Assembly (NCBI GenBank): GCA_964016885.1
Contig: OZ024741.1
Location: forward strand, 285,820,001-285,884,000
Length of the DNA: 64,000 nucleotides
Direction of reading: 5' to 3'
DNA from: Eledone cirrhosa
Taxonomy: Eukaryota
The position numbers and the translations under genes were made by a program. Of this stretch, positions 54,865 to 55,064 are shown piece after piece (position 1 is the first letter of the stretch; each line of letters opens with the position of its first letter). The notes under the pieces are model-generated. The model worked only from the letters and a program-made list of their open reading frames with translations, was not told where the DNA came from and did not search any database.

Positions 54865-55064
54865 TTTATCCCTGGTTCAATCGGGGTTAACCACAGTAGG
54901 TAAGGTATTCAATACATAACAGAGTATAAATATTTAATATAGAAATGGCTTCTACAGGATTAGTACTGTTTCATTTGGAAGAAATCATCAGGGCTTCCTG
55001 GTGATTTCTCCCGAATGAAATGAAACAGTTCTAGTTCTGTAGAATCCGTTTCTATATTAAATAT
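54865..55064. mobile_element. (TA)n-embedded foldback element (family A) with a hammerhead motif on each strand
   Basis: Palindrome 54930-55064 centred on GGGCTTCC. Plus arm: GGCTTC-CTGGTGA-..-GAAA-CAG..CTG-TA-GAATCC. Minus arm: CTGATGA-tttcttccaaat-GAAA-CAG-tactaatc-CTG-TA-GAAGCC. Confidence 0.8.

Follow-up and report, generated by a model that had tools for sequence, protein, structure and literature searches.

The 135 bases at 54930-55064 of a 64,000-nt stretch of Eledone cirrhosa DNA (referred to here as the window) form a palindrome with a hammerhead motif on each strand, set in a TA microsatellite, which raises the question of what kind of sequence this is and how its two ribozymes came to lie head to head.

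The palindrome and its relatives in the window

At this locus, (TA)n runs up to 54863, a unique stretch of 200 nt comes next, and (TA)n resumes at about 55060. The palindrome had been described in an earlier note on the same DNA, and the description was borne out: the best palindrome centre is 54997, the arms (54930-54992 against 54997-55064) differ by seven substitutions and one 5-nt indel over 63 positions, and the 141-nt stretch folds as a single hairpin of -78.1 kcal/mol (z -14.3), a value equalled in 0 of 200 shuffles. The repeat family to which it belongs is called family A, and a second family in the window is called family B. The features are as follows.

39284..39477, no strand assigned: family B palindrome 1 (B1), long arm on the minus strand and short arm on the plus strand, joint inside stem II
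39529..39650, plus strand: solo family A copy of another subfamily, core CUGCUGA, ending in (CA)n
40041-41916, minus strand: decayed Neptune-type Penelope-like element (PLE), given as context only and not as a demonstrated parent
54575..54863, no strand assigned: (TA)n target array, left side, from the tandem-repeat search (TRF) and the sequence
54864..54992, minus strand: long arm, a hammerhead without the 5' strand of stem I and about 88 nt past the cleavage site, ending at (TA)n
54864..54924, minus strand: tail of about 60 nt, on one arm only
54905..54925, minus strand: ACTCT..GTATYGARTAC motif common to the family B long arms, a small hairpin
54953..54991, minus strand: type I hammerhead, CUGAUGA, U·U-closed stem II, GAAAC, 4-bp stem III, GUA
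54991..54998, no strand assigned: head-to-head joint, GG/CC closing a 4-nt loop, with 1-2 nt common to both arms
54992..55064, plus strand: short arm with every hammerhead part, altered by A6G, a duplication of 5 nt and a mismatch in stem I
55229..55244, minus strand: family A scrap of 16 nt with the cleavage site inside it, flanked by (AG)n and (TA)n
57327..57528, no strand assigned: family B palindrome 2 (B2), 88% identical to B1, with the same outer ends and joint site

The minus arm had been said to carry a canonical CUGAUGA..GAAA..GUA hammerhead lacking its stem I partner, and it does: CUGAUGA, GAAAC and GUA are all there, stem I is down to 1 bp, and the predicted cut falls between 54953 and 54952. 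The plus arm had been called a full type I hammerhead; all of its parts are present and each of the three stems can form (5, 4 and 4 bp), but the core carries A6G, a 5-nt duplication precedes GAAA and stem I contains a mismatch. In every window copy of family A, the hammerhead fold differs from the minimum-energy fold. Neither ribozyme copy at 54930-55064 is predicted to cleave, because stem I is missing from one, the core is mutated in the other, and read-through RNA would pair the two copies; the palindrome is likely not a working double ribozyme. A cis-acting dimer of both ribozymes was rejected as well, since the motifs lie on opposite strands and a single transcript would carry a sense and an antisense copy that pair with each other. 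The long arm departs from the family majority at 7 of 129 positions, and was on this ground taken to be an old copy. The short arm finishes about 20 nt past the cleavage site, inside (TA)n.

Other pieces of family A in the window agree with the earlier description. The scrap noticed near 55231 is an exact 16-nt match (0 of 100 shuffles), and the solo copy begins at stem I directly behind (TA)25, with 90% identity to the minus arm over 61 nt and stems of 6, 3 and 4 bp. Both window copies that keep the 5' edge begin at the same GG. The motif that families A and B had been proposed to share downstream of the ribozyme occurs once per long arm (A, B1 and B2), three times in total against 0 of 100 shuffles, and with the family A majority letter at 54908 it is identical to that of B1; the solo copy is without it. 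The tails themselves fold no better than shuffles (z -0.15 to 0.35 in five window stretches), so that it is the A/B common motif, and only that, which argues for hairpins in the tail. A tRNA-like or B-box promoter read by eye in the tail was dropped, as the solo copy is without it.

Family A is a repeat family with the same long-arm and short-arm layout in (TA)n as family B, in accordance with the earlier note, and (TA)n adjoins all three palindromes as well as the solo copy. In the two B palindromes the joint sits within the 5' strand of stem II and CUGAUGA is lost, which does not support breakpoints at the ribozyme edge as a general rule. The arms of B1 share variants that are absent from B2 and vice versa (two substitutions and an indel-bearing stretch); because the arms share such copy-specific variants, each B palindrome likely arose at insertion from one template, and gene conversion between the arms could be an alternative cause. 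B1 and the solo A copy also have a target in common, the (TA)25 run that lies between them.

A strict type I descriptor gave three matches in the window (39535, 54998 and 56899), whereas 100 resampled windows gave 0.02 on average. Rfam returned no hammerhead match in the window at E<=1 or at the gathering score, and the Rfam matches obtained were microsatellites or hairpin look-alikes of microRNA models. Besides families A and B, another family is represented on the plus strand at 56894-56937 by a third hammerhead of type I, CUGAUGA..GAAAC..GUC, with (ATT)n about 100 nt later; the roughly 700 bp of unique sequence between (TG)n and this hammerhead contain no PLE protein match.

Family A in public sequence runs

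Of nine public runs listed, four, from no more than three samples, were compared with the long arm at 80% likeness. Matches were found in 5472, 5703 and 4442 contigs of three runs and in 4399 raw reads, figures that are not copy numbers, and family A is a high-copy family. Conservation of the core in a consensus had been put forward as a check, and the core is indeed kept over thousands of matching contigs and reads: among 40 of the 44 variant rows, no variant falls at C3, U4, G5, U7, G8, A9, G12-C15.2, U16.1 or A17. The A6G change amounts to about 1% of contig depth, and to 2% and 13% of RAD reads depending on direction; the core is individually broken in the plus arm (A6G) and in the solo copy (A6C). 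Variation in the ribozyme clusters at four adjacent sites, 54977-54980, which are exactly loop II. At 54976, the letter that prevails in three runs gives stem II back a third pair; in the fourth run this letter reaches 43%. Stem II of the family thus has 2-3 bp between a U·U mismatch and a tetraloop that varies, and stem III has 4 bp and a loop whose palindromic CUAG core could pair between two copies. No compensatory stem pairs were seen among the family A variants of the public runs; read by eye, such pairs occur only between families.

The ends of the copies were then considered. The longest matching contigs stop at 54863-54869. Loose ends that continue as (TA)n are concentrated at 54925 (78 and 75 contigs and 353 reads, among 24 listed of 538), a site that sits on a TATA in the element and at whose matching place the short arm stops. 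Loose ends also gather behind 54992 (113, 118 and 105 contigs and 477 raw reads, among the same 24 of 538), where six further letters complete stem I (GGC-U-UUC) and so restore in the family the strand that is missing from the long arm. Upstream of this strand there is no consensus in the contigs and reads that reach the 5' edge (agreement 0.43-0.46). Raw-read depth does not change abruptly at 54952/54953, where the cut is predicted, and for this reason 5' ends defined by cleavage were rejected.

Joints between opposite strands make up 10 of the 15 listed (of 22). One side lies at 54990-54996 in five of these ten, both sides lie there in one, and in four a side falls at 54972-54975, alignments being clipped there by the variable loop; the other side of the edge joints spreads over 54922-54992. 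The earlier proposal of breakpoints at the 5' edge of the ribozyme therefore stands as regards a common copy boundary and fails as regards the joint as a whole: one arm often stops at the edge, but as a rule the two arms do not both do so.

Two further variants were noticed in the runs. A direct-repeat joint from 54959-54977 to 54929-54932 recurs in several diverged copies in three runs; the unit is cut about 35 nt past the cleavage site and resumes at A9, with CUGAUG omitted, and it is perhaps a subfamily with an internal tandem of about 70 nt. In run X7, 348 reads carry behind 54990 a variant 5' strand of stem I that would pair with the changed 3' strand of the plus arm, possibly a compensatory subfamily at few loci.

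Penelope-like elements in the window and beyond

The decayed PLE in the window comprises an RT (41260-41886) and a CX4CX2C motif with a GIY-YIG-type nuclease (40730-41122), its 3' end lies at a (TA)n, and a hammerhead remnant read by eye at about 40227-40262 has a U3-A8 core and U·C closing. In a tblastn search of the window, PLE protein matches were confined to 40730-41886. Pfam gave no match on the window RT fragment itself, whose identity is drawn from 325 homologues; full-length relatives of this PLE carry RVT_1 and GIY-YIG, and the named matches to its protein come from Argonauta, Octopus and also bivalves.

An alignment of 21 relatives was used to fetch 97 PLE-RT loci (the first scan being the best 80 of 382), and a relaxed descriptor for sense-strand hammerheads yielded 49 hand-picked hammerheads among them. 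In this set of 97 loci, 30 of the 49 have the published bulge and G-C pair, and four have U·U closing without a bulge, all of them among the 16 closest loci. These 16, at 38% identity or more among the matches listed, comprise eight with a clean hammerhead, two doubtful and six with none; four of the eight clean ones (L003, L004, L005 and L083, again among the matches listed) are U·U-closed like family A. The script had called six of the 49 U·U, from which L038 and L065 were removed as better read as a bulge with G·U. In a MAFFT alignment of 20 PLE hammerheads, the stems were too poorly aligned for pair counts or a covariance model. The U·U hammerheads sit beside relatives of ORFs with a C-terminal nuclease, whereas Naiad elements have an N-terminal nuclease and no canonical hammerhead. 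According to PMC8557442, octopus Naiads target (TA)n and one has half a core; the family motifs were not found in the supplement of that paper, in which long sequences are cut and a match may be hidden.

Inverted arrangements occur in the fetched loci. In L040, two hammerheads stand head to head in a palindrome of 356 bp that lies upstream of the ORF, and L065, L070 and L088 have inverted hammerhead-bearing copies. Repeated ends in 11 loci stop 54-173 nt after C3, seven of them touching a contig end; the outer ends of family A lie at about +63 and +127 after C3, and L086 enters (TA)n at +62. In sequence, families A and B matched the 97 loci (first scan, best 80 of 382) by blastn only over 21 nt (E 0.039), exact-pattern scans of metagenome and viral contigs gave 0 matches, and none of 49 candidates in a viral PLE scan was confirmed.

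It was also observed that in L002, L004, L005, L007 and L009 a separate upstream ORF starts 136-170 nt past the hammerhead core, in four of the five after a CCG..ACAAG word loosely like the long end of family A. Animal-type PLE RT-nuclease genes turned up in bacterial MAG records (L081-L097; P0007, P0042, P0068, P0102 and P0106); these genes, for example in Thiodiazotropha, are likely host contamination.

Origin of the palindrome

Insertion of element ends into (TA)n by PLE enzymes is established, and tails and inverted truncated copies are its known traces. The palindrome is best read, with a probability of about 0.7, as an extremely 5'-truncated insertion of a Neptune-type PLE, in which two ribozyme-bearing ends stand head to head in (TA)n and have since decayed. 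The proposed tie to PLEs is drawn by analogy from ribozyme type and layout, not from a sequence match. PLE ends are a known class that accounts for the layout and that the earlier note did not name.

Both the class and the layout have precedents (for further context see PMC6765202 and PMC13282606). PLEs form partial tandems and adjacent inverted 5'-truncated copies with a 30-40-bp tail at one end, and their (TA)n bias has been linked to a CX2-5CxxC linker, the head-to-head mechanism being called undefined in the same source (PMC8557442); head-to-head palindromic junctions were described earlier, with self-priming proposed (PMC3846280). Family A resembles these endonuclease-bearing PLEs (Arkhipova et al. 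2013, PMC3846280; Craig et al. 2021, PMC8557442) in the head-to-head palindrome with unequal arms, the one-sided tail, the hammerhead near the end and the (TA)n target, and the inverted 5'-truncated copy with a tail on one end is present in it; it differs in that its arms are cut down to the ribozyme, with no ORF, and that its tail is 60-80 rather than 30-40 nt. The sequence at 54930-55064 is likely the shortest form of this known insertion type.

The ribozyme itself compares in part with the minimal hammerheads of metazoan PLEs, which are mostly solo, with some dual ones on opposite strands 100-700 bp apart (Cervera and de la Pena 2014, PMC4209133). Type I architecture, opposite-strand pairs, a majority of solo copies (thought to be truncated PLE ends) and a palindromic core in loop III are common to both. 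In family A, however, there is no bulge after A9, U·U replaces G10.1-C11.1, stem II has 2-3 bp and stem III has 4 bp with an 8-nt loop; owing to the U·U closing, the missing bulge and the 4-bp stem III, it is not the PLE minimal hammerhead. Natural U·U-closed hammerheads are on record: U10.1·U11.1 stands at the base of stem II in HHR_Amex2 of the axolotl (PMC7229834) and in variants given by Perreault et al. 2011 (PMC3088659), as it does in family A. The Amex2 monomer cleaves 22% in 1 h and the dimer does better, and Amex2 sits in 350-bp tandem, circle-forming retrozymes, whereas family A is dispersed in (TA)n (PMC7229834). A search of the accessible literature listed no paper on octopus hammerheads or on family A.

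The insertion could have proceeded as follows. A GIY-YIG nuclease would nick both strands of the (TA)n, and reverse transcription would prime at each nick from one of two sites on the RNA, which lie about 63 nt and about 127 nt past C3, the nearer one on a TATA that matches the target. Both cDNAs would extend to the 5' edge of the ribozyme and anneal there through 1-3 bp of GG/CC, giving one tailed and one tailless arm, and the ribozyme would be a passenger of the element end. This scheme of priming from both target strands with annealing of cDNAs at the ribozyme edge is favoured tentatively, at somewhat below even odds, and is argued from three palindromes in one window. A parallel is the Anolis Poseidon element PAc (Frangieh et al. 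2024, PMC11167929): its protein cuts and extends both target strands in vitro, two internal start sites define its tail, and ribozyme cleavage is dispensable for insertion. PAc belongs to another clade, however, and its ORF begins inside the ribozyme, whereas in family A a stop follows soon after the core AUG.

Several results count against the reading as a truncated PLE insertion. Among the 97 loci and in two collection scans, no autonomous element bearing the family A end was found; the missing common upstream sequence argues against random truncation, as a long element should leave some; the tail exceeds the published length; and the short end sits on a TATA match, whereas priming of the Anolis element was not target-homologous in vitro (PMC11167929). 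Some of these points suit a closely related alternative, possible though held to be doubtful, in which family A would be a separate non-autonomous element some 130 nt long, a SINE-like PLE derivative whose RNA starts at stem I and is copied in trans by the PLE enzyme, so that the PLE machinery is kept and the template changed. The loose ends past 54992, which complete stem I and then lose consensus, and the GG start shared by both window copies with a 5' edge fit this alternative, and non-autonomous elements forming pLTRs have been described in Chlamys (PMC8557442). However, contig counts favour unique flanks, since a common upstream sequence collapses into few contigs, RAD reads sample limited loci, subfamilies with differing upstream sequence would also blur a consensus, and no promoter was identified. 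The apparent wall of 5' ends at stem I is a mildly novel point that hints at a non-autonomous element of about 130 nt, and if real it would make family A a short non-autonomous PLE derivative. A broader version, in which octopus-like genomes hold abundant non-autonomous Penelope derivatives of about 130 nt (A and B) with a template start at stem I and a downstream hairpin read by the PLE, the palindromes arising by two-sided priming from two fixed starts and joining at the ribozyme edge, is speculative and judged unlikely as a whole.

Other alternatives concern the inversion step or the class. The PLE origin would stay the same if the inversion came from one nucleic acid that folds back and primes itself, for example on an antisense template, and self-priming is favoured for rotifer Penelope in PMC3846280. 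The joints are indeed short hairpins, in which GG/CC encloses 4 nt in A and GGA/TCC encloses 2-3 nt in B, and a contig joint from 54946 to 54992 fits a switch across both strands of stem I; but a cDNA begun at the long end predicts the full 5' end on the long arm, and the end of the short arm is a site used by many other copies. Because it is the short arm that holds the fuller 5' end in A and B2, two-sided priming is preferred, and fold-back is considered unlikely. A non-LTR retrozyme, in which tandem ribozyme repeats self-cleave into monomers and circles that re-integrate, would explain a small type I hammerhead unit with no ORF and has a U·U-closed stem II in an active axolotl family (PMC7229834) and a 2026 preprint deriving retrozymes from PLE ends (bioRxiv 10.64898/2026.07.22.740005) on its side. 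An almost complete tandem may be present in one contig (54987 to 54862), but the window contains no head-to-tail array of whole units, for which reason the circular-RNA line of the earlier note is unsupported; copies start at stem I rather than at the cleavage site, depth lacks a step at 54952/54953, and most listed direct-repeat joints resume at A9 without the CUGAUG core. A retrozyme is accordingly rated as improbable. A MITE or fold-back DNA transposon targeting TA, with the ribozyme look due to chance, would suit a short palindrome in TA-rich DNA; it is very improbable in view of the unequal arms, the solo arm at 39529, the variable joints, the conserved core with variation in the predicted loop, and a descriptor chance of 0.02 per window. 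Least credible is an assembly or library chimera or fold-back artefact, to which a palindrome between poorly assembling microsatellites might point: the arms differ by seven substitutions and an indel, two B palindromes have the same design, and a like joint (54992/54996) is present in 50 raw reads with two starts in an independent run.

Although class and layout are already known, the family matters in two respects. Family A adds a U·U-closed, long-stem-III hammerhead family missed by Rfam; and with thousands of insertions of 60-200 bp, in which the outer ends and the joint fall within one read, the formation of PLE inverted repeats becomes testable by counting. If the two-sided priming reading is true, thousands of natural junctions would be at hand to settle how these inverted repeats form.

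Other repeats were observed in the window. A SINE-like repeat of about 190 bp, which may resemble an octopus SINE, is present in more than 10 copies at 85-96% identity (for example 13214-13401, 21598-22011, 37201-37390 and 61689-61877). Translations read by eye further pointed to decayed LINE ORFs, RTE-like and L1/Tx1-like, and to a fragment of a Helitron-like helicase, these LINE and helicase remnants lying at 5841-9485 (minus strand), 17828-21398 (plus), 23126-25821 (minus) and 50504-52394 (minus).
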